A stretch of 64,000 nt of DNA, taken from assembly GCA_977020255.1 (NCBI GenBank), contig CDROCS010006370.1, forward strand, positions 1 to 64,000. The letters run 5' to 3'. Shown here piece after piece: positions 33,301-62,394 of the stretch. Within the stretch, counting starts at the first letter, position 1; every line of letters starts with the position of its first letter. Under the pieces are notes generated by a model. It saw only the letters and a program-made list of their open reading frames with translations. It was not told the DNA's origin and ran no database searches. The stretch comes from Obrimoposthia wandeli. Its lineage: Eukaryota. The position numbers and the translations under genes are program-made.

Positions 33301-36300
33301 TGTAGAATTTCACGACTGCGTTCAATTTCAAAAATATACTCCCAGCAAACCGGGTAAGTTCGGAATAAAGTGTTTCTGGTTGTGCGAAGCCTAGTCTGGA
33401 TTCTGTCTCAATGGTTTAGTTTACATTGGCCAACATTCTGTAAGATATGTAATTCTCCAACCATGTGCCTCAGTACCTGAAGGTGTGGTCACACAGTTGA
33501 TTACCCCTTATTTGGATAAAGGCTACAATTTAGTGGCTGACAATTGGTTTTCTTCTTTAGCTTTGATTGATAAGCTGAGAGCTCACCAGACAATGTGCCT
33601 GGGGACAATGCTGCGGCGAAATCATTGGCTGGTCGTGTAGAAGGTGATACTAAGTTCTACTACGAACCCAATGGCACTGTACTGGTGTCATTCTGGGACA
33701 AGAAAAAGAAACTTGTGTTAGTGGTTGACAGCTTTGTCAGAGTTAGGGAAGAATATCCCGTCTCTAACAAAGCTATATCCATTATGCATTACAACAAAAC
33801 CAAGTCGGGAGTATATGCTATGGATAAAATGGTGCGTCATTACACCACAAAGAGGAAATGTAGACGTTGGCCTGTATCTTTATTCTTCAATCTCCTAGAT
33901 GTCACATTGGTAAACTCTTTCATGTTGATAGCTCAACTTCTCAACATTGATGCACAGCAGAGGAAGACTTATCATTCAAAATACATGCTGGACGTTGGAT
34001 ACAGTTTAGTGAAGAATTTGGCAGAGCACAAAGCAACAACGTATATAAAGGCCCCCAAAAAGGACAAACTGGCCTAGCAATTGTGTGACTATGGTCCGAA
34101 ACAACAGCCAAGGGAAAGATGAACAAGACTGTATTGCAACAAAACGTCGATGTGCTTCATGCTACCGTGCAAATCGAAAGGGTAGAAAAACGTCCCACAA
34201 CTGCAACACCTGCAATAGTCCCATATGCATGCAGCATGCAACATTTGTTTGCGAAGATTGTCAATAAATCGAACTGTGAAAATTGTTCGTCTTTTAGTCT
34301 TTTGAAGTATTTGATCATGTATATAAAATATTTTTGTGTTTTTTGAGAAATACCTATTTATTAGTTATTTTCCAATATATACACTTTGTATAATAAAATA
34401 TTTTCAATTTAACCTAAAATTAAACAGGTTATAGTTGATTTTATTATGTTATAATCCATGGGTCTGAGAGTACCCATAACACAGTTAACGCCATGACTTT
34501 TATGTCATAGAAAAATGGTTAACTAAATTAGAGTTTTCAGCTTTTAAATTTTAAAGAGAAAAACTGTGTTCCACATAACCTCTTAAATTCTTTTTAATTT
34601 ACGTATTCCAAGGCTAGATGTCAAATGTTATAAAATACGCGTTTACATACCGGGTTAAAAGGAACGCATTCCACCATAAATATGGGTTCTTTTCTTTAAT
34701 ACAAATAATACATGACAATTTAAAATTTTATTTTGTTATTGGAATTTAACATTTTAGAAAGTATCAATAAACTTAATATATGATAGTTTAAATTAAAAAC
34801 ATAAGTAATACCCTTATGAACATGAAAACATTTTAGGAATTTCATATTAAATTATTAATTATATTGCAGCTAGAACAATTTTTAACAAAATTTATTGTTT
34901 ACATATTATATTTATAAAGGAGTAATTCCAAGCGGTATCTTTCAATCTTAAGCATTTAAATTTTTGTGGTAATAAAAATAATTTGACAACGAATTTATGC
35001 TCTTTTTTTCCTAAATATATCTAATGGAAAAGAGAAGAAGTAATAGAAAATGATTAAAAGTATTGTTTTTAGTTTGTATCATTTCAAATTATATGCTTTT
35101 TAGAAGTTATTTAAATATGTGATTTTAAATAAGTCAAATACAATGTTGAATTTGAAGACAAAAATCTATTTTAAAAGTGATAATATTTGTTCAATAAATA
35201 AATGTTACAAAACTTAATTTGAATTTTAAAATAATTCAAAATTAAAAATATTAATAACTGTATAATAATTATTTCAAAACCCGTATATATATAAACATAA
35301 TTGTATTTCCCCCAAAATATTAGGTTTTTCATAACATACAAGTTAATTGATATATTCTTCAATATATTTAGGAATTAGTTTATTTAAAATCATTTATAAC
35401 TTGTATAATTAAAAAAAAATAAATGGAGTAATTTAACGTTTTTTAGAGTTTCTTTTGTTCAAATACATACTTATTTTAAATTGTACGAAAAGGCCTTGAG
35501 GGAGTATAATAATTTGCACCTATTTATCTATATACAAAGTTTCATTCAATTTAATTTACAAAAAAGTAAATATTCACATGCCATCATCAATAAAAAATAA
35601 TGAAACAAAAAATTTAATTAAAATAAATCCTTGATAACTTGTGGCTTTAAAAAAACATTCTTTTTAATATAAATTTACGGACCAAACTCTTTTATACAAA
35701 AATCATTTTTGGAGTTAATTTTACTTTTTTTAACCAAATTTACATACGTTACAATTGATATGCAATTTGATTATAAAAGTTTGATTTTAAATTTACAACA
35801 TTTAGTTAATTATAACACAAACTCACATAACTGTTGTGACCCCTTGCTCCGCGACTTCCAATCATTTTACGAAACTTTCGCTTTGTTCGCTTTACAAGTT
35901 CGATGATTTTTGCCTTCAACATCTTATTGAATTTCCGCAATTCTGACAAGCGTTTTCGAAAGAACTCGACAAACTTATTCCTTGGACTGTCTTTCGACAG
36001 TCTCTTTTCGATTCGTTTGATAGACAAGTCATTGTAGGCCAACACGAAAATGCAGTTTCTGAGAATATGTTCGCTTGTCATCTTCGCAAGAGTCTTCTCC
36101 AACGTGGAGTTCTGGAGCTTACTGTAGTTAAGACTGTTTGTGTTGTTCTTTGAATGCTGCATATTGCTGAAGATCTGCTTCTGCATTGTCTTCTTGAACG
36201 AACGCATATTGTTTAGGGTGTCTCGTAATCGATTCTGGAACCTATCTACATCTTCTGGATTAATATTGTCTTTGCCAGACGGTTTCAAATTGTGGCTTGA

Positions 36301-39300: not shown

Positions 39301-42300
39301 TGTATGCGAGAGAGATGCTTTTTCGTATTTAATGCTTTCAATCAATATGTTAAAATAAATATTTGTTAAAATCAGTTACTGACAATTATAAGTGCATAAT
39401 CCTCATTCAGAAATTCGTGCTTGAATTATCGGGAAAGATTGCGAGCAGAATTAAACAGACAATTTCTAGTTTTAAGAGTCAATCCTATGAAAAAAGTTAA
39501 AAAATGTATGTTTTTAATAGTATAGACAAACATGCAGATTTTTGGCTTTGTTCTTTTAATCAAATCACAGGTGTAAAGGTGATAATATTTTAATATTAAC
39601 ATAAAAAAATCAGTTGAATAATAAAATTTGATAAATACATTTAATCAGAAAATAATATGATAAAGTTCTATCAATTTTGTCAAAATTGACGTCACTAATA
39701 TCTTCTATAAGTGGCCAAACAAAGTTCTTTGTTTCTTTCTGTTACTTTTTCAAATGAGCAGCACTTGATACAGACATTGGTTTCTCGGTTGTGATACGCA
39801 TACATGTACTTACTGTGAGTTTCTTTCGGCTTCATTTATGTTTTGTTATGGTTAGGATTTGTTTTAAAAATTAAATTAAACTCAGAAAGCTCAACAAATG
39901 CTACCGAATCATTGTTCGTTTTTTTAAAAATTAAAATATGACTGAAGCATTATGTGTTGCATAAAATACCAAAACTATTTAAGCAATACATTTACTTATG
40001 TTAAACCTTTTTTTAATATAAAGTGATAAATAAAGAATAAAAAATAAAAACAGTTGAGTAAAAGCTAAAAGGTAAAAAAGTAACAACTGTTCCAATTCAC
40101 CCAAGTTGACAGTATATGCTGAAGTTGAATGACAAGTTACTCTTCTTGCTAGCCTTGTTAAAATAATGAATATAAATGATTTTTAGGCAAACAATTCATG
40201 ATAATAAAAAAGTCAGGTAATAAAGGGAAATAAGCTTTTTGGTCAAAATAAAGTTATCTTTCAAAAACAATTGTTTTCCTACACATTTTTCTGTAATTTT
40301 TTTCTAATGAAAAATGTTATATTTATGAACAAACAATAATTATAACTGAATTTTAGAGATTTATAACTTACATGGTGATTTAACAAAAAAGAAAATCACA
40401 GATTTGTAAGATATTTTTAAAGTTATTTCAGCAGTTTGGTTTTAAAAGTTTTCATTCCCATATTTATGATTTTAAAATAATTTTTCATATTTTATTGTTT
40501 ATTCAACTTAAAATTCTAATCAATGTGACCCAATTTTTAAAATTGAAATGATTGATTATTTATTTCCTTTTAATAAATGTTTACAAATATATATTTCAAC
40601 CTCAATAAGTTTTGAGGATTTCACATCTTTCCAACTTTGCTTAACGTCAAAGTGGCTTTATAAAGTAGGTTTACTTTTGTTAAAAGAATTGTTTTTAAAT
40701 ACATAGATTTATAAAAATCCTAGCAGTATTTTTATATTTAAATTTAAAAAATGAAATTTTTATATCTCTGAAACTGTTTTTTGGTAAATAAAACTTTAAC
40801 ATTCTTTCTGATAGCTGTTTTGAGAATAATTTGAAAATATGAAGAAGGATTGAGATTTCTACTTTGATAACTTCCTTAAAAAAGGTCGGATATTTCGAAT
40901 CAATAATTAATTTATCATTACTATAATTTACAACAAATCTAGACTTAATTTAAGTTCTTTATGTATTTAATTTTTCGAAGCAATAAGTAAAAGTACTTGT
41001 AGAGATTATCGAAACGGCCCACTATTTTTGGTTGAAGTCCATCGAAGAGGAGGTGACAAACCATTGGTAACTATTCAAAGAAATCCCACTGACATACACA
41101 ATTAAGGTTCACACAGCTGTCAGAATATGGTTAAATTTTTTAGCTACATAGGAACCAATAATACAACTTACTTTTACAATATTTTATAAATAATGTTTGC
41201 TCGCTAGTGAAAGATGTTTTCATATTTTTTCTCTCTTCTCATTTGACCAGTAAACTGGTCGTAATTGGAATGGAAACCCAAATAATGTCTTTTACAATTA
41301 TATTCTTTGCATACTGCTTTTATTTCTGAACAATTTAAACTTATTGGCTTGTATTCAATAAAAAGTTGTCGTCAGTCCATATACATTTAATTCTCTCCTT
41401 TCCTGGTTCACTTTTCTGAGTATGCTTGAGCTGCCATATTTAAATTACGGATAAAATTATTTTTTTCCCTGTGTTATATAATCGTTTGAAAAAAAAAATT
41501 TAGATGGTTACAGGCCTCATAAATATTGAAATTTATAGATATTTTTATATTTTCAATTTTTTAGAAAATACTGTTTGTATAATTTGGATAAATCCAAATA
41601 CACGGAGAAAAATCTAATTAAGGATCGCCGTTACATTCAGATATGTAAGGCATATTAAAAAGTGTTACAAACAGTGATTAATTATATTTTACTCTTCTTA
41701 ACATGAGCTATACCAATTCCGCTATACAACTTTTGCATTTTTAAGAAACAAGAAAAGGGATTAAAAAGTTAATTTTATTCTACTTTTAAAAATATATATA
41801 TTTTTACTTAGAAACGTATAAAGTTTATGAAAACGTTTCGTCGTTTCATATTTTTACATATTTTGTTGTTGGATGTTTCTGAAACGGATAAACAATTTGT
41901 ATTAATTTCTCATGATTGGAATAAAAAATTAGTTCATTCCTGCAAAAGTATTTTCTGGAATTTGTGAAAAGAATGTATAGTTTTTAGCGCTAAAATTAAT
42001 ATTGTAATGTATCCATATGAACAACATATCCGCAGTGTTCTTACTTGAATCCGATAAATTTGTTTGCACAATATTTCTTGTAGTCTTTTACACATTTCAT
42101 CGGTATTTTTGCTGACTCATCACTTTTGCCAACACTTGGAGCCAGTTTATTCACCGCTGGGAAATCTTTGCCGTTGATACTTGGGCTCATTTTGTCTTCA
42201 AGAGCTGCATCAGATTTATCAATATTCTTATTGAACATTTTTTCATCTTCATAACCCTTTTCTGACATCGATTTCGTCATGGGATTCTCCTCTTCTCCTT

Positions 42301-42670
42301 CAAGTCCAATGTTTCCACCTTCCATGGAAGACGAAGGTGATCCTTCTGGAAAGGATTTCTCTGCGGAGCCCACTTTCTGGGCCTGGAAGAGACTTGTGTC
42401 GGTTTTGGGTCCCGTGTCACCGAGACCCAACTTAGACTCCGCCGGCAGCTTCTTATCGTTTCCAGCAGCGTCTTGCTTGTTGCTGCTGGGTGGCTTGCCG
42501 AAGGCTTGTGGCTGGTCAATTTTCTGGTTTCCCTCTGTGAGGCTGATCGGGTCGATGTCTGTGGAGTCAGGGTCATCTGGAAAGGTCTGAGCACCCTCGG
42601 TTGCACAGTGCAACAACATACATATGATTGGCAACACCACTACAAGCATCGCTTGATTGTGTCGGGCCAT
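30336..42670 (-). CDS. spliced gene for a secreted/membrane-anchored protein with a pacifastin/VWC-like Cys module; middle exons unresolved
   Basis: Exon 42670-42045 (signal peptide MARHNQAMLVVVLPIICMLLHCATEG) splices in phase to 39171-39042 (FNDGCHDCKCVQAGEKYCSQGQC). Candidate exon 38390-38352. Exon 36597-35827 splices in phase 0 to terminal exon 30653-30336 (Arg run, then hydrophobic ASILLLTLMLIPLLLLPVL). Joining the two halves into one gene is inferred. Confidence 0.6.
31759..32031 (-). mobile_element. L2/CR1-group LINE RT C-terminal fragment
   Basis: IRKYLTTEITTMLMHAVIISRFDFQNSLL...YINPSL matches the L2-type IR.YLT...T..LVHALV.SRLDYCNSLL...HITP.L motif. Confidence 0.7.
32286..34484 (+). 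mobile_element. piggyBac transposon, 2.2 kb, defective
   Basis: TTAA on both sides; 26-bp TIR CTGTG(AC/TT)ATGGGTACTCTCAGACCCA. Transposase motifs TIDEQLVEF, ADNWF, YNKTKSGVY.MDKM, RRWP...FFNLLD, and a C-terminal Cys-rich domain. Confidence 0.95.
32505..34267 (+). pseudogene. piggyBac transposase, multiple stops and frameshifts
   Basis: ORF fragments 33209-33394, 33595-34077 and 34085-34267 (CASC...CNTCNSPICMQH...CEDC). Confidence 0.92.
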
Positions 42671-43610
42671 GATATCGGGTTCTGTTGGGCGTCGTGCTAA
42701 AATGAGCAATGTGTAGACAGCCCCACTATTTGAAGAGAGCCGCTGACAGTTGCGGGCTGATTCTATAATCTAAATCACCCCAGTAAATGCAGGCATGAAT
42801 TATGAGCCAGTATATTTAGTCATTAGTTGCCGATTTTTCAATCTCTCGTACTCCACCCGAGTGACTGTATTTAGCATTAGTCATTAATTAATTTTTCTAC
42901 AGCATCAAAAGTAGGTAAATCTGCCATCAGCTTCTTAACTCTTTCAAATCAAACACTCACGTAAAGTTGGCTGTTGGTATAAGTTGAGAAAGTGCCCACC
43001 CATAAAAATTATTAATGTCAATATACAGTATCTCTGGGTATTGATTTTTAACATTTGATCTTCCAGTAACTTGACAGTAATCTTGAGTTTTTATTACACT
43101 TGTTCATAAAAGATCTGGAAAACTTAAGAAATGGAATCAATACTATATTTTGCTAAAGATTTTTCATGAAAGGACTTAAACACAGCAGATTAAAGATAAA
43201 TGACTAACTTCATATAATAAAGCACATACAAGGAGATTTTGAAAATTACTCTCCAAAAACGCACAAACCTCATAAAAATCTTGAAGACTTTTACAAATAA
43301 TCAAATATAAAAAAGTTATACGGAAAAACTCCATTATTATTAAACAAATCAGTGAAAGTGATTAAATGTTTCAAATATCCATTTAAAAATTGTGTAGAAT
43401 GTATAAATCTGAAACTGAAGAATTAAATATATACAATTAAAGATAAATATTTATTTGAAGTTTGAGGTATGCGATTCTCAAAGAGTTAATTTATCCAAAA
43501 CGTATTTAAAGACATGATGCAAATCATATCCTTTGAGATTATGAAACACAATGGGAATGCACTTTTTTTGAGAGTAAAGTCAAGGTTACAAAGATTGCAC
43601 GCCAGTAGGT

Positions 43611-43831
43611 GGAAGGATGGAGTCTAAGCCACTTTACCCCCCCCCTAAAGGGTGTCACTCCATAAGGATGTCACACCATAAAAGGTGTCTTGCCACACCA
43701 TAAGGGTATATGTTGCCTCACCTCTGGTGAGGCAACATATACCCTTATGGTGTGGCAAGACACCTTTTATGGTGTGACACCCTTTAGGGGGAGGGGGAGG
43801 GGGGGTCAAGTGGCTTAGACTCCATCCTTCC
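43611..43831. repeat. left terminal self-complementary hairpin (mirror copy at 51192-51404)
   Basis: 43611-43634 GGAAGGATGGAGTCTAAGCCACTT is the reverse complement of 43808-43831. It encloses a perfect 54-bp-arm palindrome 43669-43779 with a TCT loop. Confidence 0.95.
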
Positions 43832-44165
43832 TTGATATACTACTATGGTCGTCCATAGTTTAAAGGGTCAAGTGGCTTAGTCTCCACCCTTCTTTTTGAG
43901 ATATACCACTATGAAAGGGTCAAGTGGCTTAGTCTCCACCCTTCTTTTTGAGATATACCACTATGAAAGGGTCAATTGGCTTAGTCTCCACCCATCTTTT
44001 AGTGATCTAGTCTCCACCCTTCTTTTAGTGATCTAGTCTCCACCCTTCTTTTAGTGATCTAGTCTCCACCCATCTTTTTGTGGTCTAGTCTCCACCCTTA
44101 TTTTTGGCTAACTACTAATTCAAAGGATCAAGTGGCTTAGTCTCCACCCTTCTTTTTGTGATCTA
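43806..44165 (+). repeat. subterminal iterated motif (AAGTGGCTT/CT)AGTCTCCACCCTTCTTTT, ~9 copies in ~52- and ~25-bp units; inverted set at ~50880-51215
   Basis: Read directly from the sequence. Confidence 0.9.
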
Positions 44166-44769
44166 GTCCATAATGAAAATTTATGATAAAGTTCACTCTT
44201 AACAATTAAGAAATGTGGTTTTTAACACACACATACACTATTTTATGTGAAATTTATGATAAAGTTCACTCTTATCAATTAAGAAATGCGGTTTTTTAAC
44301 ACACACATACACTATTTTATGTGAAATTTAAACTAAAGTTCACTCTTATAAGTTAATGAATGTATTACGTAATCACACACATACTATTTTATGTGAAATT
44401 TAGATCAAAGTTTTTCCTAGGCTTTCACATTTATAGAATTATGATAAAATTTCTTTAAATAACTTCAATTATATATTAAAATAAAAAATAAAATAAGAAA
44501 GAAGTCAGAGAATAATACAAAATTAAACACATTTATTATGTTATTACATAATATCATCTTCAAACTTAAGTGAATAACATTTACAAAGTAAGAAAGTCCA
44601 TTCTTTATACATTCTTTTCGTTTCAACGACTAAGTTACAACGGAATTAATAGAAAATTAGTAAAAATATTAATTTATTTGAATATTTGAATGAGAGTTTG
44701 AATAAATGAGAGGTAGAATGAATGTAAATGAATAAAATTATGCATGCAAGTATGAATGTCATTTACAAG

Positions 44770-46140
44770 TAAGAGTCTTAGCAAGTGAATGTAATTTTTA
44801 AAATAAGAGTGTCGATAGTTTGATTGAATGCAAGTGTAATTTAGACTATAAGTAAATTAAAATAGAGTTTTTGTTGAATAAATTATAGTTAGATTGAATG
44901 CAAGTATGACGAGCAAGTGATTGATAGTATGAATTTCAATACAAGTAAGTGGGTTTAGCAAGTGAATGTAATTTTAAAAATAAGAGTGTCGATAGTTTGA
45001 TTGAATGCAAGTGTAATTTAGACTATAAGTAAATTAAAATAGAGTTTTTGTTGAATAAATTATAGTTAGATTGAATGCAAGTATGACGAGCAAGTGATTG
45101 ATAGTTTGAATTTTCAATACAAGTAAGTGGGTTTAGCAAGTGAATGTAATTTTAAAAAATAAGAGTGTCAATAGTTTGATTGAATGCAAGTGTAATTTAG
45201 ACTATAAGTAAATTAAAATAGAGTTTTTGTTGAATAAATTATAGTTAGATTGAATGCAAGTATGACGAGCAAGTGATTGATAGTATGAATTTCAATACAA
45301 GTAAGTGGGTTTAGCAAGTGAATGTAATTTTAAAAATAAGAGTGTCGATAGTTTGATTGAATGCAAGTGTAATTTAGACTATAAGTAAATTAAAATAGAG
45401 TTTTTGTTGAATAAATTATAGTTAGATTGAATGCAAGTATGACGAGCAAGTGATTGATAGTTTGAATTTTCAATACAAGTAAGTGGGTTTAGCAAGTGAA
45501 TGTAATTTTAAAAAATAAGAGTGTCGATAGTTTGATTGAATGCAAGTGTAATTTAGACTATAAGTAAATTAAAATAGAGTTTTTTGTTGAATAAATTATA
45601 GTTAGATTGAATGCAAGTATGACGAGCAAGTGATTGATAGTTTGAATTTTCAATACAAGTAAGTGGGTTTAGCAAGTGAATGTAATTTTAAAAAATAAGA
45701 GTGTCGATAGTTTGATTGAATGCAAGTGTAATTTAGACTATAAGTAAATTAAAATAGAGTTTTTGTTGAATAAATTATAGTTAGATTGAATGCAAGTATG
45801 ACGATCAAGTGATTGATAGTTTGAATTTTCAATACAAGTAAGTGGGTTTAGCAAGTGAATGTAATTTTAAAAATAAGAGTGTCGATAGTTTGATTGAATG
45901 CAAGTGTAATTTAGACTATAAGTGAGTTTTTGTTGAATAAATTATAGTTAGATTGAATGCAAGTATGACGAGCAAGTGATTGATAGTTTGAATTTTCAAT
46001 ACAAGTAAGTGGGTTTAGCAAGTGAATGTAATTTTAAAAATAAGAGTGTCGATAGTTTGATTGAATGCAAGTGTAATTTAGACTATAAGTAAATTAAAAT
46101 AGAGTTTTTGTTGAATAAATTATAGTTAGATTGAATGCTA
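44770..46140 (+). repeat. ~178-bp tandem array, left arm (~8 units)
   Basis: Marker GGGTTTAGCAAG at 44951, 45129, 45307, 45485, 45665, 45844 and 46011. Confidence 0.95.
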
Positions 46141-48600
46141 TAGTTTACAATAAATTTATGCATATATTCACTTTAATATGTTGTAAGTTATTACTTTATT
46201 ATAATTTTCAACAAAAACTTCAAGTAGTTTACTTATTAAACATAAGTTTAATGTTTTGTACAATAAATTGACTTGTAAACATAATTTATTTTGGTATATT
46301 TTCAATTTAATATGTTGTAAGTTATTACTTTAATATAATTTACAACAAAAACTTCAAGTAATTTACTTATTAATCATAATTTTAATGATTTGATCAATAA
46401 ATTGACTTGTAAACATAATATAATTTGCATATTTTCAATTTAATATATTGTAAGTTAATACTGTAATATTTCATTACATAAAAAAGGAATTGATAGTTTA
46501 CTATCGTTTACAATAAATTTATGCATATATTCACTTTAATATGTTGTAAGTTATTACTTTATTATAATTTTCAACAAAACTTCAAGTAGTTTACTTATTA
46601 AACATAAGTTTAATGTTTTGTACAATAAATTGACTTGTAAACATAATTTATTTTGGTATATTTTCAATTTAATATGTTGTAATTTATTACTTTAATATAA
46701 TTTACAACAAAAACTTCAAGTAATTTACTTGTAAACTACAATATTTATTTGTTGTTGTATATATTCAGTTTAAAATGTTGTAAGTTAATACTTTAATATA
46801 ATTTACAACTAAATCTTCAAGTAATTTACTTATTAATCATAATTTTAATGATTTGATCAATAAATTGACTTGTAAACATAATATAATTTGCATATTTTCA
46901 ATTTAATATATTGTAAGTTAATACTGTAATATTTCATTACATAAAAAAGTAATTGATAGTTTACTATCGTTTACAATAAATTTATGCATATATTCACTTT
47001 AATATGTTGTAAGTTATTACTTTATTATAATTTTCAACAAAAACTTCAAGTAGTTTACTTATTAAACATAAGTTTAATGTTTTGTACAATAAATTGACTT
47101 GTAAACATAATTTATTTTGGTTAATTTTCAATTTAATATGTTGTAATTTATTACTTTAATATAATTTACAACAAAAACTTCAAGTAATTTACTTGTAAAC
47201 TACAATATTTATTTGTTGTTGTATATATTCAGTTTAAAATGTTGTAAGTTAATACTTTAATATAATTTACAACCAAATCTTCAAGTAATTTACTTATTAA
47301 TCATAATTTTAATGATTTGATCAATAAATTGACTTGTAAACATAATATAATTTGCATATTTTCAATTTAACACGTTGTAAGTTAATACTGTAATATTTCA
47401 TTACATAAAAAGTAATTCATAGTTTACTATCGTTTACAATAAATTTATGAATATATTCACTTTAATATGTTGTAAGTTATTACTTTATTATAATTTTCAA
47501 CAAAAACTTCAAGTAGTTTACTTATTAAACATAAGTTTAATGTTTTGTACAATAAATTGACTTGTAAACATAATTTATTTTGATATATTTTCAATTTAAT
47601 ATGTTGTAAGTTATTACTTTAATATAATTTACAACAAAAACTTCAAGTAATTTACTTGTAAACTACAATATTTATTTTGTTGTTGTATATATTCAGTTTA
47701 AAATGTTGTAAGTTAATACTTTAATATAATTTACAACCAAATCTTCAAGTAATTTACTTAATAATCATAATATTAATGATTTGATCAATAAATTGACTTG
47801 TAAACATAATATAATTTGCATATTTTCAATTTAACACGTTGTAAGTTATTACTATAATATTACATTACATAAAAAGTAATTGATAGTTTACTATCGTTTA
47901 CAATAAATTTATGCATATATTCACTTTAATATGTTGTAAGTTATTACTTTATTATAATTTTCAACAAAAACTTCAAGTAGTTTACTTATTAAACATAATA
48001 TTAATGATTTGATTAATAAATTGACTTGTAAACATAATATAATTGTATATATTTTCAATTTAACACGTTGTAAGTTATTACTATAATATCACATTACATA
48101 AAAAAGTAATTGATAGTTTACTATCGTTTACAATAAATTGACTTGTAAACATAATATATTTATGCATATATTCACTTTAATATGTTGTAAGTTATTACTT
48201 TATTATAATTTTCAACAAAAACTTCAAGTAGTTTACTTATTAATCATAAGTTTAATGTTTTGTACAATAAATTGACTTGTAAACATAATTTATTTTGGTA
48301 TATTTTCAATTTATATGTTGTAAGTTATTACTTTAATATAATTTACAACCAAAACTTCAAGAAATTTACTTAATAATCATAATTTTAATGATTTGATCAA
48401 TAAATTGACTTGTAAACATAATATAATTTGCATATTTTCAATTTAACACGTTGTAAGTTAATACTGTAATATTTCATTACATAAAAAGTAATTCATAGTT
48501 TACTGTCGTTTACTATAAATTTACTTGTAAACATAATATATTTATGCATTTATTCACTTTAATACGTTTTAAGTTATTAGAATTTGTGTTCTTGTATTCA
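46140..48600 (+). repeat. central AT-rich higher-order tandem array (~464-bp period built from ~100-130-bp subunits)
   Basis: Marker TTTATG(C/A)ATATATTCACTTTAAT recurs at about 46156, 46517, 46981, 47446, 47909, 48160 and 48541 (last copy diverged). Confidence 0.9.
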
Positions 48601-48629
48601 ATGATTAACTTTTATTAAACTATTATATA

Positions 48630-50280
48630 ACATTGACACTCTTATTTTTAAAATTACATTCACTTGCTAAACCCACTTACTTGTATTGAAATTCATACTA
48701 TCAATCACTTGCTCGTCATACTTGCATTCAATCTAACTATAATTTATTCAACAAAAACTCTATTTTAATTTACTTATAGTCTAAATTACACTTGCATTCA
48801 ATCAAACTATCGACACTCTTATTTTTAAAATTACATTCACTTGCTAAACCCACTTACTTGTATTGAAATTCATACTATCAATCACTTGCTCGTCATACTT
48901 GCATTCAATCTAACTATAATTTATTCAACAAAAACTCTATTTTAATTTACTTATAGTCTAAATTACACTTGCATTCAATCAAACTATCGACACTCTTATT
49001 TTTTAAAATTACATTCACTTGCTAAACCCACTTACTTGTATTGAAAATTCAAACTATCAATCACTTGCTCGTCATACTTGCATTCAATCTAACTATAATT
49101 TATTCAACAAAAACTCTATTTTAATTTACTTATAGTCTAAATTACACTTGCATTCAATCAAACTATCGACACTCTTATTTTTAAAATTACATTCACTTGC
49201 TAAACCCACTTACTTGTATTGAAAATTCAAACTATCAATCACTTGCTCGTCATACTTGCATTCAATCTAACTATAATTTATTCAACAAATACTCTATTTT
49301 AATTTACTTATAGTCTAAATTACACTTGCATTCAATCAAACTATCGACACTCTTATTTTTTAAAATTACATTCACTTGCTAAACCCACTTACTTGTATTG
49401 AAAATTCAAACTACCAATCACTTGCTCGTCATACTTGCATTCAATCTAACTATAATTTATTCAACAAAAACTCTATTTTAATTTACTTATAGTCTAAATT
49501 ACACTTGCATTCAATCAAACTATCGACACTCTTATTTTTAAAATTACATTCACTTGCTAAACCCACTTACTTGTATTGAAAATTCAAACTATCAATCACT
49601 TGCTCGTCATACTTGCATTCAATCTAACTATAATTTATTCAACAAAAACTCTATTTTAATTTACTTATAGTCTAAATTACACTTGCATTCAATCAAACTA
49701 TCGACACTCTTATTTTTAAAATTACATTCACTTGCTAAACCCACTTACTTGTATTGAAAATTCAAACTATCAATCACTTGCTCGTCATACTTGCATTCAA
49801 TCTAACTATAATTTATTCAACAAAAACTCTATTTTAATTTACTTATAGTCTAAATTACACTTGCATTCAATCAAACTATCGACACTCTTATTTTTAAAAT
49901 TACATTCACTTGCTAAACCCACTTACTTGTATTGAAATTCATACTATCAATCACTTGCTCGTCATACTTGCATTCAATCTAACTATAATTTATTCAACAA
50001 AAACTCTATTTTAATTTACTTATAGTCTAAATTACACTTGCATTCAATCAAACTATCGACACTCTTATTTTTAAAATTACATTCACTTGCTAAACCCACT
50101 TACTTGTATTGAAATTCATACTATCAATCACTTGCTCGTCATACTTGCATTCAATCTAACTATAATTTATTCAACAAAAACTCTATTTTAATTTACTTAT
50201 AGTCTAAATTACACTTGCATTCAATCAAACTATCGACACTCTTATTTTAAAAATTACATTCACTTGCTAAGACTCTTACT
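48630..50280 (-). repeat. ~178-bp tandem array, right arm, inverted (~10 units)
   Basis: Reverse-complement marker CTTGCTAAACCC recurs nine times from ~48665 to ~50095, plus a terminal variant. Confidence 0.95.
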
Positions 50281-53125
50281 TGTAAATGACATTCATACTT
50301 GCATGCATAATTTTATTCATTTACATTCATTCTACCTCTCATTTATTCAAACTCTCATTCAAATATTCAAATAAATTAATATTTTTACTAATTTTCTATT
50401 AATTCCGTTGTAACTTAGTCGTTGAAACGAAAAGAATGTATAAAGAATGGACTTTCTTACTTTGTAAATGTTATTCACTTAAGTTTGAAGATGATATTAT
50501 GTAATAACATAATAAATGTGTTTAATTTTGTATTATTCTCTGACTTCTTTCTTATTTTATTTTTTATTTTAATATATAATTGAAGTTATTTAAAGAAATT
50601 TTATCATAATTCTATAAATGTGAAAGCCTAGGAAAAACTTTGATCTAAATTTCACATAAAATAGTATGTGTGTGATTACGTAATACATTCATTAACTTAT
50701 AAGAGTGAACTTTAGTTTAAATTTCACATAAAATAGTGTATGTGTGTGTTAAAAAACCGCATTTCTTAATTGATAAGAGTGAACTTTATCATAAATTTCA
50801 CATAAAATAGTGTATGTGTGTGTTAAAAACAACATTTCTTAATTGTTAAGAGTGAACTTTATCATAAATTTTCATTATGGACTAGATCACAAAAAAGAAG
50901 GGTGGAGACTAAGCCACTTGATCCTTTGAATTAGTAGTTAGCCAAAAATAAGGGTGGAGACTAGACCACAAAAAGATGGGTGGAGACTAGATCACTAAAA
51001 GAAGGGTGGAGACTAGATCACTAAAAGATGGGTGGAGACTAAGCCAATTGACCCTTTCATAGTGGTATATCTCAAAAAGAAGGGTGGAGACTAAGCCACT
51101 TGACCCTTTCATAGTGGTATATCTCAAAAAGAAGGGTGGAGACTAAGCCACTTGACCCTTTAAACTATGGACGACCATAGTAGTATATCAAGGAAGGATG
51201 GAGTCTAAGCCACTTGACCCCTCTCCCCCTCCCCTAGGGTGTCACACCATACCTTGCCACACCATAAGGGTATTATGTTGCCTCACCAGAGGTGAGGCAA
51301 CATATACCCTTATGGTGTGGCAAGACACCTTTTATGGTGTGACATCCTTATGGAGTGACACCCTTTAGGGGGGGGGGGTAAAGTGGCTTAGACTCCATCC
51401 TTCCACCTACTCACGCCGCTGTCAGGTATCGCCCCGTAATGTGATTATAATCTCTGATTAGCCTAGATGGGACACCGAACAAATAACAAGCTGTACTAAA
51501 ATGAAAGTACTTAATTTTGTGCGACAGGGACCCTATTTAAATAAGTAATGTAACTTTCATTCGATACTCGAATAATCCTAGGTCATTTCATAAGTGTTTG
51601 CGGCGTTTGGAATCAGTGTTTCATCAACCGTAACAGCATCTCCATTTTCAACCCGATCAAATTCATTATCATTGAATAACTCCTCATTTGAGTTTGTAAC
51701 GATCAATTTTCTCCGGGTGAGACAGGGAATAAAAAACGTTTTGGTTATACATACCATATCAATATGATGTGAAAGAGAAGGTAATGAAGGTTTTTAGACT
51801 TTGTAAAACAAAACAAAAAACATATTTTTTGTATATACTGAATTTTTATAGAGCTGAATTTTCAAATGTATAGTGTTATAGTAAATGAGAGAACTGATAG
51901 ACTATCAGAAAGTCCAATAGAAATCCTTTGTGACTATTTCAGGAGCTATTAAATCCTAAATGGTAGACATGAAAGTGCAGTCACCTGCTCGTTTTCAATT
52001 TCGAAATTTACACATCCAATTTACACAATCTTCTAGTTTTAATTTACTTGCTTGACTTCTGTACCATCCACCGTCATTAGACTGCTCTTGAGTGGTTGAA
52101 AATTCAGTTTTTGTCTCAGTTTGTAAAAATTTTACACCTACACCGATATTTTACACATGCATAAATTTTCAATCCAGACTCAAATACAGTGTTTTATAGG
52201 ATAAAGGATTGCCTACCCCCTTACTTCAAAGAAATTATCAGCTCAGAAAATATAGAATGCTATAGAAAATAGAGTACTTTTTTAAACAAACATTTCCCAG
52301 TCTCTTTATATAGAAACCTTTTCAACAGTTGTCTATCTAAACGTTTTAGTGTTTAGGTAATATATAAAAGTATAATTATGTATATAATTATAAGCAGTAT
52401 TAAATGGGCAATGAAGTTTTCACATATGTTAAACAATAGCAGTTGTGTACAAAATCAAAACTACTCGTTTTAGTTTCAATTTTTTGGAAACAAAGTCATT
52501 TATACTGTTTGTTTTAAAACAACAACAAGTTATTTCTCATTGTTAGGGTCAGTTTATATTTTAAATGATTTGCCATATATTTAGAAACATAAGTGTTACA
52601 GAAATGATACAGCTACAACTTATCACTTGTAACTGAACGTCTTGAAATTAATTAAAATTAGTAAATTTAATTGGGAATCATAAACATGCTTATAAGGTGA
52701 CATAATTCATTTAAAATTTAAGATGTATATAAGTAGGTAGGCTGCTACTGTCCTTTAAAACTGTGCATGTGTATGGAGGGAAATTTCAGAGAAGGGGAGA
52801 ACCCCCCAATTTTTTATTTTATTTTGAATTTTATCGCTAATCTTAAAGGTGATTAGAGAAGACCACGGGAATCCATATTGACCCTGGCGGCCTATCGGAG
52901 ACGAGATTTCAAATAATATTTTATTTTTTATTTTTATAATTTATGTGAAAACATTACTACTATTTTTAAGAAAGATTTTAGATTAATAAATTACCACATG
53001 TTTGTTAAATATCTAGGTCAGTTTTATAATCTATGGTAGAAAAATAGGTTTAGATAAGATTTATATAATTTATAGGAGAGAAAAACAAAATACGAGTCAA
53101 AATTCGTTTCTAAACATTTATTAAA

Positions 53126-53434
53126 TCAAACATAAAACACCATATTGGCTTCACTCAAATTCCAAAGAGGCTGCAATTTCCTGTCATCAGCAAAATATCC
53201 ATTGAGACGTATTGAAATATTCCATAGTTCTTCATCTAAAATTGGAGCAATCACATATCCTAGATCATCTCTAAAAGCCAGACTGTGATCAGTTTCAAGC
53301 TGGAAAGAATTTCCTTCATATACATAATCAGGTATGTAAAATTCCAAAATATTTTTCAATTGATCAATATCAGATGTTGTTAAAATTTTAATGATATATT
53401 TATTCTCCACTTTTGATATTTTAACAGGATTCAT
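53126..53434 (-). CDS. Maverick accessory protein, paralog of 53688-53972 (possibly OB-fold/SSB-like)
   Basis: Intact 102-aa ORF; shares (A)F.DD.G and W...IRL.GY.....K..P.W motifs with its neighbour. Confidence 0.65.
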   Translation of the reverse strand: MNPVKISKVENKYIIKILTTSDIDQLKNILEFYIPDYVYEGNSFQLETDHSLAFRDDLGYVIAPILDEELWNISIRLNGYFADDRKLQPLWNLSEANMVFYV

Positions 53435-53687
53435 AACTCGTATAATTTGATGGCTCTTTAATATATTACATAGTTTTGCAATCCATTTGAATAATAAAAA
53501 TGTTCTACATATCTCAGAAGAGGATCCATTCTAAAATAAAGAAACTGATTAAAAAACAATGTTTATAAAAATGCATATAAGATACAAATATTATGAAAAT
53601 AAATAAAACTGATTATTACATGCCAAATGAAAGAAACATGGGAAAAATGAAAAAAAAGAATAAAACCGATGAAAGAAAAAGAAATAA

Positions 53688-53972
53688 TTAAAACATATAG
53701 ATATGAACACGTTCAATTTTCCACATAGGTAACTTTGTTCCAAATTCATTTTTCTTGTAACCATAAAGTCGAATTGTTACAGTCCATTGCTTCTTTTTAA
53801 GAAATGCATTAACATCTATTTTTCTTCCATAGTCATCTAGAAATGCTGCATCAGCTCCTCGGATATAAAATTCGTTCTTATTGAAAGTAAAATTTGGAAC
53901 TGCCTTTTCAACTCTCTGTTTTAGATATTGAAAATCTGGTTTTTGAATATTTGATAGATAATAGCTGAACAT
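53688..53972 (-). CDS. Maverick accessory protein, paralog of 53126-53434
   Basis: Intact 94-aa ORF containing AAFLDDYG...WTVTIRLYGYKKNEFGTKLPMWKIERVHI. Confidence 0.65.
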   Translation of the reverse strand: MFSYYLSNIQKPDFQYLKQRVEKAVPNFTFNKNEFYIRGADAAFLDDYGRKIDVNAFLKKKQWTVTIRLYGYKKNEFGTKLPMWKIERVHIYMF

Positions 53973-54163
53973 TCTTCTTTCACTTCTTTTACTAAAGCAA
54001 TCAGTTGAGCCATCTTCAAGAATCTAACTTTGTATTTGAAATATTGTTTCACTTCTTCATACATATCCTTATCCGATTCTTCAAACATTTCTAAATCTTC
54101 ATCACCGCATAATATCCGTTGGCTATCGTCCATCATTGATAATGGTCTTTGATATGAATGCAT
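53921..54163 (-). CDS. small unknown Maverick ORF with acidic N-terminus
   Basis: 80-aa ATG ORF overlapping the next ORF by 52 bp, consistent with compact viral packing. Confidence 0.4.
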   Translation of the reverse strand: MHSYQRPLSMMDDSQRILCGDEDLEMFEESDKDMYEEVKQYFKYKVRFLKMAQLIALVKEVKEECSAIIYQIFKNQIFNI

Positions 54164-54445
54164 TTATTATGATTTGTCCTCCAATGGTGCATTCTTTTAT
54201 ACTAATTTGTAACAAAGATATGAATCTCATTGGTTAATATTACTAAAGCATTGAATTTGATTGGACTAAATCCATATTAAAAATTGAAATTGGTTTGAAG
54301 AAATATATCATCCAATTATAATAGGTTTTCAAGATATTTACAAAAAATTTGCAATAATAAAGCAGTTTCATATATATATAAAAAAGAATTTACAGAAGAC
54401 AATTTTAGTCTATTAAAACTCGTAATTATAAATTACAAAGAATGA

Positions 54446-55218
54446 ATAGAAGATGATATTTCGTACTTACCATTCAATGATTAGAAGCCGAGTCGATATG
54501 TGAAAAAGTTTGATGATTTCACAGTTGTTATTTTTCCCTCAGGTTAGTTTTTTTTTTTTTTTAAATTTATTTACATGTTGATTTCTTTTAGGAAGTTGTC
54601 GTGTTATGGAATGCAAAACACTATTGAATGAGTTAAATTTACCATTTGGAATTCAAAACCATACAATCAATCAAAATTTCAGCTAATCTCGGGAAAGCAA
54701 TAAATCTTTATAAAATTGCAGTGAAAATGATAGAAGAATGCATATTTGAACCAGAAATTTTTCCTGCTCTCAGTTATTTGAAGTTTAAACCGCTATGTGT
54801 AAATATATTTTCCAGTGGTAAAGTCATGATATTGGGATTGAAAAATTTTGATTATGCAGACTTGGTTGATTCGATTTTAGAAAATATATTATATTACAGT
54901 TTGTTATCTTTCTATAAACAAACCCGTTTAAACCTATTGTTTCAAATGAATAATACTATAAAAAAAGACAATGAAGTGGATCGTCTTGTCAACGAATTTT
55001 TTTCTGGGAAAATTAAGGGTAAACAAATTTTATCAGAATTAAAAAATAATGATACAACAAAAGATAATATTGAAATATTGGTTAGATCACATGTTATTCA
55101 AGAATTTAGAAATCGAACACAAATAAATAAAATTATATCCAAATATTCATTAATTAATTTTTGTATTTCATATACAGTAGCTCTAACATTATACCTTTCA
55201 AAAAAGAAACTTCTATGA
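54446..55218 (+). pseudogene. TATA-binding-protein-like gene with a 49-nt intron, damaged
   Basis: Repeat 2 IQSIKISANLG.AINL...FEPEIFPALSY...VNIFSSGKVMILGLK aligns to TBP IQN.V.S.D.K..I.L...YEPELFPGLIY...LLIFVSGKVVLTGAK. Repeat 1 FTVVIFPS|GSCRVM is restored by removing GT..AG 54543-54591. One frameshift near 54650, and stops at 54443 and ~54480. Confidence 0.8.
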
Positions 55219-55254
55219 TAATATAAACAATGTCAAATTGAAAGAGTATATGTA

Positions 55255-55903
55255 ATGGAGCTTAATAATAATGCCGTATTTCAAATAGTTGGTCCCAGTG
55301 GAAGTGGAAAGACACATTTCGTATGTAAATTGTTGTAAAATGAATCTCTTTTCAATTCTAGTTTTAAAAATATTTATTGGCATCATGGTGAAGGAGAGGA
55401 AAGGGGATTAACCCAAGCAGAAGTCTGCAAGTTGAAGGGAATTAAATTTATTGAAGGATTTGATGTGAATTGGTCCGAAAGATTGAATAAAAGAAGATGT
55501 AATTATAATTAATGATTTGTATAAAGAAGCTAACAAGGAATTTGACTTTAATAATTTATTTTCAAAGATTGCAAGACATCGCGAAGTAACAGTTATATGT
55601 ATCACTCAAAATCGTTTTCCCCGAGGAGGTCATCATAGAACAAGAAATCTTAATGTACATTACTTAATTTTATTTAAAAATTCTATAGATCAAACAGTTG
55701 TACATGTTGTAGCCAGACAAGCATTTCACCAAAATAAGAACTTTCTAATTGATTCATTCGATGATGCTGCTAAACAAGCACATGGGTATATATTTATTGA
55801 CTTTACACAAGCTTGCCCAGATGATTTACGTGTTTTAACAAACATATTTAATTCAATGGAAGTAATTGTTTATAAACAAACAGAGAACAATTATAAAAAA
55901 TAA
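55255..55903 (+). pseudogene. packaging ATPase (A32/FtsK-like)
   Basis: Walker A VGPSGSGKT, Walker B-like VIIINDL, and ARHREVTVICITQN. One stop and one frameshift. Confidence 0.93.
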
Positions 55904-55910
55904 ATATGCA

Positions 55911-56057
55911 ATGCCTTTTAAAAAGTTGATAGTGAAACGTAAACGTAAAGTAAAGTCTAAGAAAACAAAAAAAAAATCATTCAGAAAAAAAGCAGTGAAT
56001 AAATTAATCAAGTTTGTAGTTCGGAGTAAAAGAAAACTTAAATGGCTTCAAATATAA
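55911..56057 (+). CDS. small Lys/Arg-rich protein, putative DNA-condensing core protein
   Basis: MPFKKLIVKRKRKVKSKKTKKKSFRKKAVNKLIKFVVRSKRKLKWLQI lies between virion genes. Confidence 0.45.
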   Translation: MPFKKLIVKRKRKVKSKKTKKKSFRKKAVNKLIKFVVRSKRKLKWLQI

Positions 56058-56085
56058 ACAAGATTTAAATTTAACTTTTTTTAAA

Positions 56086-56380
56086 ATGAAGAAAATACAA
56101 AGAAGCATACCCTACTTTAATGCTTTGATCAAAGCCTCTTCTCATAAGAGAATGAGTATTCTGAAAGCAGTTCCATATTTTATTGTATATGATTTATTGG
56201 AAGTTTTGTATAATATAGTTTTGGGTCGAGTAAAAATTGGAAAACGGAAAAATGTATTAAAGAAATATGGAAAAACTCTTCTAGATATTGCTAATGTAAA
56301 ATATAAAAAAAAGGAAACGAAATATTATTCTTATACATAATGGCGGTTTCATAGGAGCTGTTGTTTCATTTATCAGTAGA
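56086..56380 (+). pseudogene. conserved small Maverick protein ending in an NGGFIG motif
   Basis: KRMSILK...LLEVLYNIVLG..KI...LKKY; frameshifted tail HNGGFIGAVVSFI resembles the (Q/N)xGGF protease-site tail of Maverick small ORFs. Confidence 0.65.
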
Positions 56381-56490
56381 ATTATATTTGCGATACGTAC
56401 ATAAACAATTATTTTAAAAATCACCTAAAGATATGGTTGCTAACCCTTCTTTACCTAAATTTAAATGTTCTATTTATTCAAATTGTTGTA

Positions 56491-57516
56491 ATGGAGAACA
56501 AATGGTTCAATCCAAAAGACCCAATTGGCTACACAGGAGTTTCGAAACTGACAAAAATACAAAACAGAATTACAAGAAAACGCAGAAATGGCTGAACGAT
56601 CAAATAGTCTACAGTCTGAACAAGCCAATGAGTAGAAGGTTTCCAACTAGAGCTTACAAAACCAGCGGTCCTAATAATTTTTGGCAAATGTATTTGATGA
56701 TATGATTCCATATTCTTCCATTAGTAAGGGATACCGATATATTTTAACATGTATTGATGTATTTAGCAGGTTTGCGCGTGCAATTCCAATTAAAACAAAG
56801 ACTTCAATAGCTATGCTTGAAGCCATTAAAGAAATATTAAAAGAGAACATTTTACAAAATGTGCAAACTGATTTAGGAAAAGAATTTTATAATAATCAAT
56901 TTCAAACATTATTTAAGCCAAATAATATAAATTACTACTCGGTGTTTTCGCAGTACAAAGCAGCATTAGTAGAAAGATTTAATCGTACTTTAAAAGATCG
57001 AATAAAAAAGTATTTCACAAAAGAAGAAAATAAAAAGTGGATCCAAGTTTTGCGTAAAATAATACATGCATATATTCACTCTGAACGTAGAAGTCTCAAG
57101 GGAATGAAACCTGTTGATGTTACTGATAAAAACTCTATTGATATTTGGATAGACAGGAATAAAAAAGAAAATGTTAAAAAAGCTACATATAAGAAAAATG
57201 AATATGTTCCAATTTCTAAAATTAGCTCTACTCCATTTATTAAAAACTTTGATCAGATTGGAGCGATGAAATATTTTGTATAAGTAAAATTGATTAAAAG
57301 AGTAATCCAATAATGTATACTATTAAAGATGCTGACAATAATATCGTTCACGGTAAATTTTACGAGCAAGAACTACAAGTAATATCAAATAAACCTAGCG
57401 TTTTCCGTATTCAAAAAATATTAAAATCTAAGGGTACAGGTAAACATAAACAATACTTTTATAAATGGCATGGTTATTCAGATCCAACTTGGATATCAGC
57501 ATCTAATATAATATGA
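56491..57516 (+). pseudogene. retroviral-like (rve) integrase with C-terminal chromodomain
   Basis: WFNPKDPIGYTG, YILTCIDVFSR, VQTDLGKEF, VERFNRTLK, then GKFYEQELQ and FRIQKILKSKG...Y.KWHGYS. Frameshifts present. Confidence 0.95.
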
Positions 57517-58495
57517 AGTCTATGTATATGGTTTTATCTAGTAACACATGCCCGAAGACTCAGCCGGATAATGACGATAGTAGCTTTATTATCGATTGGA
57601 AAAATCCTATAAATCTCCAAGGAGAATGGGAAGCGGCTTTAACTAATTTTTTTAAAATTATTCTCCAATTAGTATCAGAAAAAACTCACATATTTCGTTT
57701 ACCAAAGAAACTGAAGTTGTGATCGGGTTTGATAGTAAAGGAAAATTATTTTACAATTGTATAGATAAATAAGTGAAAGTAATATATGAAAATAACAAAA
57801 TAAGATTTAAAAATCGATTATTTTTTATTCAATTGACATTTGAATCTAAAAAAGAAGCTCTTCATTTCAGTTTTGATAGTGAACATGCAATAGGTATTAA
57901 GATACGGGATATTGTCACATCTAAATGGGTTAGAAATGTTCCTGGTAGAGTTAGAAGACTGTTGTTAGCTGAAACGAGATCAAAGGATGTACTTTAACTG
58001 AAAAAGTTTTTAAAAATTATAAAATATATAGTGAAGTGAATTTATGTAAATTAATATAGAAGGAATTTAGTGAATATTTGGATAAATGTGTAACATTAAA
58101 ATATGGTAAATTGACGTTTACAGTAAAGAGCAATGTAAAGCGGGTTTCATTTAATAATAAAATCGCAAAAAAACTCAGTTTAAACAGAAATACCTTAGAA
58201 ACCTGTACAATAAAACTCATAAAAGATAAAAATAAGGCAAAACTTTAAAATTATATAAAGCATTTATATATTTATACTAATTTAATAGAACCAACGCTTG
58301 TAGGAGGACTACGAGTTCCACTTTTGAGAACAATATGGATATCTTAAACTCAAACTAAAGTTCGGGACGTTATCGGTATTCGTATAAATCAACCCATGTA
58401 TCTTCCAGTTGCTCTATTTTCTATAAGCAATATTGAAGTAAATATTAGAGATGATTCCGAACAACTAATAGATTTCTAATAGACAAAGAAAGCAA
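57513..58495 (+). pseudogene. minor capsid protein (penton/PX-like)
   Basis: N-terminus MYMVLSSN...PDN..SSFI.DWKNPINLQGEWEAAL; C-terminus YIYTNLIEPTLVGGLRVPLLR...NIEVNIRDD..QLIDF. Confidence 0.85.
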
Positions 58496-58496
58496 A

Positions 58497-58874
58497 ATGG
58501 CAAATCCGGCAATAATTGAAGCTTATAGTCAAAGCCAACAGGGTTGAGAATAACCATATTTTGTTGGTAAACAATATGGATCCAGCTGGCTTAGAACATT
58601 AGGTAGATTTGCCTTTCCTATTTTGAAGAAACTCGGAAGATTTGTATCAAATTTAGGAAAGGACTACCTTTCATCTAAGGACAATAAACTAATACCAACT
58701 TTTAAGAAGCATGCACTTAATGAACTTGATAATGTTTTACCTGACGTTACTAATTTGATTAGAAAAGGTAAATCAAATGAAAGCCAAGAAGGTAGCGGAT
58801 TTAAACGTAAAAAGAAGCAAAAAATTAATATAAACAAACGTAAGAAAGTTGAAGAAACAATATTTGCAAATTGA
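58497..58874 (+). pseudogene. Maverick QxGxG-motif protein (PW/PZ-type; core or membrane-lytic candidate)
   Basis: YSQSQQG..PYFVGKQYGSSWLRTLGRFAFPILKKLG amphipathic segment, then QEGSG and a basic tail. Confidence 0.7.
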
Positions 58875-60066
58875 GTTGCGTCAAAACCGTATTGTTGTAC
58901 ATAATGCTTTCATTGAAGAAATATTTCTAGTTAACTCAGCTTCAGGAACCACTTTAACCGATTTAGAATTTAATATTAATGGTTCCAAAAGTGAATATTT
59001 AGATTTGAATGATACTTTGCTTTAGGTTCAAATAAAAGTCTTAAATCGAGATGAGACTAATTTAGCGGAAAATGCCCATGTAACACCTGTTAATTATATC
59101 TTTAATTCTTTATTTAGTGATGCCAATATTACTCTTATTAATATCAAAATTAAGTGTAGAAATTCTTTATATGCTCATAAAGCTTTGGTTGAAAGTCTAT
59201 TGAATTATAGTACTGATACTCAAAATACTAATTTGACAACCATTGGTTATGATAAAACGCTGCAACTCACAAAGAATGGATTGCAGAATCTAAAGCTTAC
59301 GAAATGTGTGGCTCTATGAGATTGAACTTCTTTGAACAATCGAAATATTTAATTCCCGGTGTTAATGTACATCTTCGTTTTAAACGTAATAAATGGAATT
59401 TTTCTTTGATAAGCACAGATATTCTAAAACCTAGACTTGATATTTTGCATGCAAAACTATATGTTCAAAGAGTTAAAACCGAGCAATAAGATTAATGGCA
59501 CATAATATAGGAATGGAAAAAAACAATGGTTGTTATCCAATAAGAGAAACTAAACTTATATCCTACTCTTTAGGTACGGGTACACAAGCTTTTAATAAGG
59601 ATCAAATTTTTGGTGATGTAAGATTCCCGAAATTCGTTTTAATTTCTTTTTAAAAAACTGCAAAGTTTCTAGGAAATTATACGACAGATGTAACTCAATT
59701 TGACAATCGTAATGTATGTTCAGTAACACTTTCAAGAAATACTGATTATCGTGATACATATAAAACATTTTTCGAAGATAACGCTTATGCTTTGGCTTAT
59801 ACGCAATCTATTATTCTGAATTTGGGTCAACTAGATAAAAATATAAGCAATGGTATTTCTTTCACTGAGTTTAAAAGTAGCTGCCCGTTCTTCACATTTG
59901 TTTTGGCACCAGACTTTGATATAAACCAATGCCAACTACCAAAGATGGAAATTTACGACTAGAAATTAAGTTCAATGCAGCTTTAACACATCCTACTACG
60001 GTGCTTATTTACGTAGTATTTGATTCGGAAATACAAATCAATAAAAACAAAACTATCATATTATAG
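58871..60066 (+). pseudogene. major capsid protein (PY, double jelly-roll type)
   Basis: LEFNING..SEYLDLNDTLL, PVNY.FNSLFS, Y..KA.VESLLNYS, FFEQSKYLIPGVNVHLRFKRN; ends IQINKNKTIIL*. Confidence 0.9.
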
Positions 60067-60067
60067 A

Positions 60068-60224: not shown

Positions 60225-60230
60225 ATTGAG

Positions 60231-61572: not shown

Positions 61573-61578
61573 ATTTAA

Positions 61579-62329: not shown

Positions 62330-62394
62330 CCAAGTATCGTGTTTAGTATATGCCAAGTATCCTGTTTAGTATATACCAAGTATCCTGTTTAGTT
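62330..62394 (+). repeat. ~23-bp tandem repeat x~3 upstream of putative pPolB start
   Basis: CCAAGTATC(C/G)TGTTTAGTATAT repeated. Confidence 0.85.

Follow-up and report, generated by a model that had tools for sequence, protein, structure and literature searches.

The stretch analysed here is a 64-kb window from Obrimoposthia wandeli (positions 1–64 000 of contig CDROCS010006370.1, GenBank assembly GCA_977020255.1, forward strand). Its main feature is a 7.8-kb foldback element located at 43604–51411 and bordered on both sides by CACGCC (43598–43603 and 51412–51417), an exact 6-bp target-site duplication (TSD). The element starts with AGTAGGT at 43604 and ends with ACCTACT at 51411, and the inverted symmetry ends exactly there. 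Two random 6-mers of the window are equal with a probability of 7e-4, and the probability of CACGCC by base composition is 2.5e-5. An earlier note, made from the sequence alone, had proposed a coding-free element with a perfect 6-bp TSD at this position, and the alignment of the arms, the ends and a longest stop-free frame of 70 aa bear this out. No polymerase or integrase matches were found inside the element, and the pPolB, rve integrase, ATPase, protease and capsid set of autonomous Maverick/Polinton elements is absent there. Likewise, an Rfam search of the element gave no match at the gathering score. Self-BLAST (E 1e-6) revealed no other copies of any element module within the window, and looser window scans with six modules returned short or AT-rich matches only. 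The exact 24-nt end has 0 matches in GTDB genomes, which is uninformative for an animal element.

The element is located within a decayed polymerase gene. The left flank was translated from the minus strand, stops being written as X, and searched against 1.84 billion proteins; four matches were obtained, all of which carry DNA_pol_B_2 and Endonuclease_7. Proteins with these two domains are taken here to be Maverick-type protein-primed polymerases. A Pfam search of the remnant, also with X at stops, recognised none of the six flank frames. All four homologs align to both flanks, in order; residues 235–266 of homolog P0244, for example, align to 51506–51414 and residues 266–375 to 43602–43315. 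Three of the four homologs match the duplicated codon in each flank, and the codon phase fits a 6-bp duplication. The right-flank matches are individually modest (E 0.001–0.004 in a flank-only search), and the weight rests on their position and collinearity. Given that the homologs are collinear across the interrupted gene, 43604–51411 is a true insertion, as a unit, into a Maverick polymerase remnant, and the assembly fold-back artefact that the earlier note had raised as a doubt is largely excluded. The insertion is recent, much younger than its target, because the arms are nearly identical while the target gene is full of stops, frameshifts and deletions. Directly after the polymerase remnant is an intact 242-aa open reading frame (ORF; 42041–42769) with a signal-peptide-like start, which could be a host gene or former Maverick cargo; for the secreted-looking frame at 42044–42694, none of 66 candidates among near-length proteins is a homolog.

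The inverted arms (2.5–2.8 kb) make up two thirds of the element length. Aligned with each other (43604–46138 against 51411–48901), they match at 97.3 % over 2552 alignment columns. The outer 1.3 kb contains 1254 matches, 4 substitutions, 7 indels and one edge gap, and a single 63-nt stretch of the terminal palindrome holds three of these substitutions and four of these indels. Differences between the arms are mostly homopolymer-length changes or are clustered in a G-run/hairpin stretch, and their concentration in the right palindrome may reflect sequencing error.

Several features were absent from the earlier note, namely the terminal palindromes, a repeated end motif and the Maverick polymerase remnant at the insertion site. 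The left palindrome, starting 7 nt from the end, has a predicted folding energy of −120.9 kcal/mol (z score −22.5, with 0 of 200 shuffles as good), and the imperfect right palindrome has a z score of −18.8. The 20-nt end motif occurs 12 times in the arms at ≤4 mismatches and nowhere else in the window; each arm has one inward copy and five outward copies, a count that includes the inner palindrome arm. A palindrome inserted separately as a miniature inverted-repeat transposable element was considered and rejected, as no duplication flanks it and the subterminal repeats carry the same motif. The unequal unit numbers of the 178-bp arrays and the small indels described previously are confirmed, with the counts of ~8 and ~10 slightly rounded up from 7.7 and 9.3. 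The AT-rich, tandem nature of the core also holds, its length being 2.5 kb (46139–48634) instead of the 2.4 kb first given. The core is 83 % A+T, with a strongest period of 464 bp (93 % match) and a sub-period of 134 bp. Copies of the 464-bp repeat differ more among themselves than the two arms do, which places the origin of the repeats before the insertion. The junction of the left array with the core is abrupt and mid-unit on either side. In addition, a 44-nt motif is common to the core and the 178-bp unit in the right-arm orientation (0 of 300 shuffles as good) but not in the left-arm orientation (78 of 300). The motif in this one orientation and the abrupt left junction suggest that the right arm and core are the older, continuous part from which the left arm was copied, or else that a deletion occurred at the left junction. 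Homology of the 74-bp repeat or the spacer to the core is not significant.

Table 1. Features of the foldback element, its insertion site and related blocks, in window positions
Feature	Position	Strand	Basis or remarks
Small related element, 576 bp	7764–8339	+	Ends AGTAGG..CCTACT, between TATATT and CATATT; subterminal repeats of 25 bp; long terminal hairpin absent
Downstream part of insertion site, decayed polymerase (exonuclease motifs to polymerase motif A)	42936–43603	−	Stops, frameshifts, deletions
Left TSD, CACGCC	43598–43603	+	Sequence, arm alignment
Terminal 7 nt, AGTAGGT, outside palindrome	43604–43610	+	First 6 bases match (AGT)2 of vertebrate Mavericks at 5/6
Terminal palindrome, 221 nt, 3-nt loop	43611–43831	.	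Extra 16 nt in outer arm; longer G run in inner arm
52-bp and 26-bp repeats with outward-facing copies of 20-nt end motif	43862–44168	−	Repeat and motif scan
74-bp repeats, 3.2 copies	44177–44412	+	Repeat scan
AT-rich spacer, mirror counterpart in right arm	44413–44763	+	Arm alignment
178-bp array, 7.7 units, stops mid-unit at abrupt core junction	44764–46138	+	Repeat scan
Asymmetric core	46139–48634	+	134-bp units within 464-bp higher-order repeat
178-bp array, 9.3 units, inverted	48635–50284	−	Repeat scan
AT-rich spacer, mirror copy	50285–50635	−	Arm alignment
74-bp repeats, inverted	50636–50871	−	Repeat scan
52/26-bp repeats with end motif, one 26-bp unit less than left arm	50880–51161	+	Repeat and motif scan
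Right terminal palindrome, imperfect	51192–51404	.	Isomer same as left when read from end
Right terminal 7 nt	51405–51411	−	Sequence, arm alignment
Right TSD, CACGCC	51412–51417	+	Sequence, arm alignment
Upstream part of insertion site, endonuclease VII-like region of same decayed polymerase	51412–51506	−	Homolog alignment
More degenerate copy of end-like block, pointing into polymerase remnant	52154–52226	−	0/200 shuffles, marginal
AGTAGGT, 8 nt, then 41-nt block 36/41 identical to small element	52732–52787	+	Candidate left end of second decayed Maverick (inferred)
Second decayed Maverick gene block	53126–64000	+	TBP-like ORF, P-loop ATPase pieces, rve integrase and chromodomain, own polymerase N-part

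A second, 576-bp element in the window has related ends. Querying with the first 24, 29 or 45 nt of the foldback element puts 7764 first, in register, among ~112,000 other positions (18/24, 21/29). A gapped 30-nt end query places 7764(+) and 8339(−), the inward-facing ends of the small element, as the best two of 112,158 positions. There are 31 AGTAGG..CCTACT pairs in the window, and matching flanks are found only for the foldback element (6/6) and the 576-bp element (5/6), the next best pair reaching 3/6. A block of the small element (7817–7857) recurs at 52747–52787 with 36 of 41 positions identical, against 24 for the next best match and with none of 1000 shuffles as good. This recurrence lies 15 nt away from where an AGTAGGT starts, and the second Maverick block has its first ORF ~340 nt further on. 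Both further copies of this block in the window sit at the edges of Maverick remnants. Homology between the body of the small element and the foldback arm is not significant. The small element also has a GC-rich internal hairpin at ~8070–8103 (z score −2.3).

The AG..CT ends and the exact 6-bp duplication match published Maverick features, and the second element has related ends, a 5/6 duplication and a link to the motif at the edge of the Maverick block; the ends of the foldback element are thus likely of Maverick type overall. The earlier note had argued from the ends and the TSD to a Maverick-type integrase, which the end type, the duplication and the related element partly support. We lean towards a reading in which the foldback element is a non-autonomous Maverick/Polinton derivative that retains cis-acting ends only, with its mobilisation in trans owed to a younger, unseen Maverick in that genome; both Maverick remnants in the window are too decayed to serve as helper. 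Non-autonomous Polintons were reportedly described by Kapitonov and Jurka in 2006. The zebrafish family Polinton-1N1_DR, a name of the Repbase type, is one such non-autonomous family named in PMC9341505. The foldback element probably belongs to this non-autonomous group, with which it shares a gene-less or gene-poor makeup, Maverick-type AG..CT ends and the 6-bp duplication; its array-built 2.5–2.8-kb arms and 221-nt palindromes set it apart, a comparison that does not extend to Repbase family structures. Autonomous vertebrate Mavericks, as presented in PMC8097293, have a 6-bp TSD, (AGT)2 or (AG)3 ends, terminal inverted repeats (TIRs) of 46–1447 bp and a length of 12.7–24.6 kb. The TSD length is the same and, of the six bases of (AGT)2, all but one agree with the end motif, whereas those elements are gene-bearing and the foldback element is gene-less, shorter and longer-armed.

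The mobilisation in trans would proceed in several steps. Insertion as a unit, via a 6-bp staggered cut, is seen at the site itself. A Maverick rve integrase may have recognised the AGTAGG ends, as the end type, the duplication length and the relatives suggest. Protein-primed copying would start from the 7-nt unpaired end, and the displaced strand would close into a 2.5-kb panhandle, as in the published model. That the terminal seven bases are unpaired speaks for protein rather than hairpin priming. Folding into such a racket or panhandle would follow from any long inverted repeat, and the model is published but not demonstrated. Copying of one end onto the other, through panhandle repair or conversion, could then have generated the long arms, with the left arm copied from the right end as the right-arm-only motif and the abrupt left junction support; arrays born in one arm would appear in both, and the unit numbers would afterwards change separately. 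Lastly, the repeated end motif may provide extra protein-binding sites, as proposed for Galileo.

Several observations weigh against this interpretation. Mobility of the gene-less form is unproven, since a single copy is seen in the window. There is no short terminal tandem repeat beyond AGT-AG, and the arms exceed the TIRs of vertebrate Mavericks, although butterfly polintons have gene-bearing TIRs of ~2 kb, and some of those without polB stay mobile (bioRxiv 10.1101/2025.02.07.637071). The family link to Maverick genes would run in two steps, via the 576-bp element. Compared directly, the foldback end and 52732 share only 7 nt (rank 402 of 112,158, not significant), and the foldback arm has no significant similarity to 52732–53126 (302 of 500 shuffles as good). 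AGTAGGT is found 14 times in the window, and for this reason its occurrence at 52732 was rejected as a Maverick end marker by itself. The two ends of the small element resemble one another only loosely, and in AT-rich DNA its flank match of 5/6 arises by chance with a probability of 2.3 %. The small element is also without the long hairpin (z score −1.2). Additionally, the 505 nt to the left of 52732 weakly match the Maverick block (translated, 11/27; E 5.5e-4 against 0.041 for the best of 40 controls), and the motif may be inside nested debris rather than at a Maverick terminus. With this match to its left and a partner that would lie beyond 64000, 52732 is not a proven terminus.

An unlikely alternative is that the site first received a whole Maverick, its long TIRs rich in repeats, from which one deletion then removed the genes in place, and that the gene-less form has never moved. 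The left array/core junction, mid-unit on both sides, looks like a deletion scar, and the lack of a second copy in the window fits as well; vertebrate Maverick loci are mostly degraded, and no non-autonomous copies were seen in Anolis. However, such a loss would have left 7.8 kb without any coding remnant yet with pristine ends and duplication. The core repeats, moreover, are older than the insertion, and a second small gene-less element exists with related ends and a near-duplication.

That the element instead belongs to a different DDE superfamily, as a cut-and-paste transposon of foldback form (FB-, Galileo- or Tetris-like), mimicking a Maverick in its ends and TSD and having landed in Maverick debris as a gene-poor zone, is improbable. 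Galileo, of the P superfamily, has a 7-bp TSD, TIRs of up to ~1.26 kb and the same foldback dynamics (PMC3573991), and Tetris is another foldback element (PMC4079207). Judging from these accounts, internally repetitive long TIRs, TIR extension, unequal unit numbers and subterminal copies of the end motif are all shared with the element at 43604–51411, and the direct sequence link of the latter to the Maverick block is weak. The blocks at 52226 and 52732 could also be remnants of a small element dispersed in old Mavericks. The duplication is exactly 6 bp, however, not 7, the Galileo TIRs are shorter, and no terminal palindrome is reported in the available text of PMC3573991. A 6-bp TSD is given for Polinton and for IS3EU/GingerRoot, and one of 4–5 bp for Ginger1/2 (PMC10045372); IS3EU/GingerRoot have TA..TA or TG..CA termini, in contrast to the AG..CT ends found here. 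The location of both further small-element blocks at the edges of Maverick remnants likewise counts against an unrelated superfamily.

A Maverick-family element that replicated by hairpin priming from the 221-nt palindromes, instead of protein priming, and was then integrated by rve is very improbable. Hairpin transfer, as in parvoviruses, is expected to yield flip and flop isomers, and both ends here are the same isomer, although one copy cannot decide. A very stable palindrome is present at both ends, yet the 7 terminal nucleotides are outside it, so the 3′ end is unpaired, and the small relative, as stated above, and the 52732 motif (z score −0.5) are without a long hairpin. Palindromes within the TIR next to the TSD, together with a hairpin-priming model, are reported for endogenous virophages as well as polinton-like viruses (PLVs) of the protist Halocafeteria, mostly without pPolB (bioRxiv 10.64898/2026.07.28.741278). 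These rve-integrating Maverick relatives are alike in the placement of the palindrome, but are gene-bearing and have a palindrome of 52 nt in the subtype shown, compared with 221 nt, starting 7 nt inward, in a gene-less animal element. In that preprint, palindromes go with an absence of pPolB, but pPolB is present in both Maverick remnants of the window. An assembly or library fold-back is hardly credible: the arm differences are of a kind typical of long-read error and the unit counts could be wrong, but the flanks are unique and non-inverted, the duplication is exact, the inverted symmetry ends at a motif that an independent element also carries, and homologous proteins are collinear across the site.

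Each ingredient of the favoured reading, a non-autonomous Maverick moved in trans, is known, as non-autonomous Polintons and as foldback architecture. The literature searched yielded no account of a foldback-type Maverick without genes, nor of this combination: a gene-less makeup, arms of 2.5 kb filled with arrays, terminal palindromes of 221 nt, ends of Maverick type and an animal host. Similar families may exist in Repbase, in subscription papers or in supplements, which lie outside that search. A more speculative extension, which we consider doubtful, is that gene-less Maverick satellites form a family that is dispersed and was recently active in an animal, parasitising the polymerase and integrase (and possibly the capsid) of a helper in the manner of defective interfering genomes. 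The arms of such a family would be self-copying and carry satellite DNA, and the palindromes would record fold-back synthesis at the ends or represent a second origin. If true, this would be direct sequence evidence for a single-stranded panhandle intermediate.

How Mavericks replicate and integrate is still described by models derived from sequence (bioRxiv 10.64898/2026.07.28.741278, among other sources). A recent gene-less insertion shows what suffices in cis, and its arms would record the copying of one end onto the other; the foldback element could thus serve as a natural minimal test case for Maverick copying and insertion. Should there be further copies, the panhandle could be tested against hairpin priming from sequence alone, through the junctions, unit counts and palindrome isomers of those copies, and Mavericks would join the transposons from which satellite arrays and long inverted repeats arise.

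The second Maverick block contains a TBP-like ORF at 54637–55218 (PF00352, E 2e-11) and the N-part of its polymerase at 63753–63998. Two paralogous minus-strand ORFs (E 3e-9) at 53126–54023 weakly resemble giant-virus protein clusters, some with DUF2738/DUF5871. Their products may bind single-stranded DNA. Other pieces at 53126–64000 are called capsid-like and protease-like by a resemblance that we assume and that is not confirmed; for the capsid-like pieces, Pfam, PHROGs and Atlas gave no confirmation. A 1.3-kb direct duplication (57581–58887 and 60211–61570, 84 %) spans the genes with the capsid-like label.

Apart from the Maverick remnants, several other features are apparent in the window. 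Gypsy-type pol pieces (reverse transcriptase–RNase H and integrase) are located at 1186–4200 and 5283–6158, followed by an AT-rich ORF region labelled env-like by eye. A DEDD exonuclease ORF (RNase_T, E 4e-4) comes after these pieces, possibly as part of one long terminal repeat element carrying an exonuclease. A piggyBac-like element (family assigned by eye) is found at 32281–34489; its inverted repeats are 31 bp long and its transposase frames are broken. A short minus-strand ORF at 30336–30653 is, again by eye, like the N-terminal exon of a ligand-channel or calcium-channel accessory host gene. The exons at 11694–24544 encode alpha-actinin with 55–61 % identity to the best 120 listed matches, which suggests a long-branch animal with an AT-rich genome.

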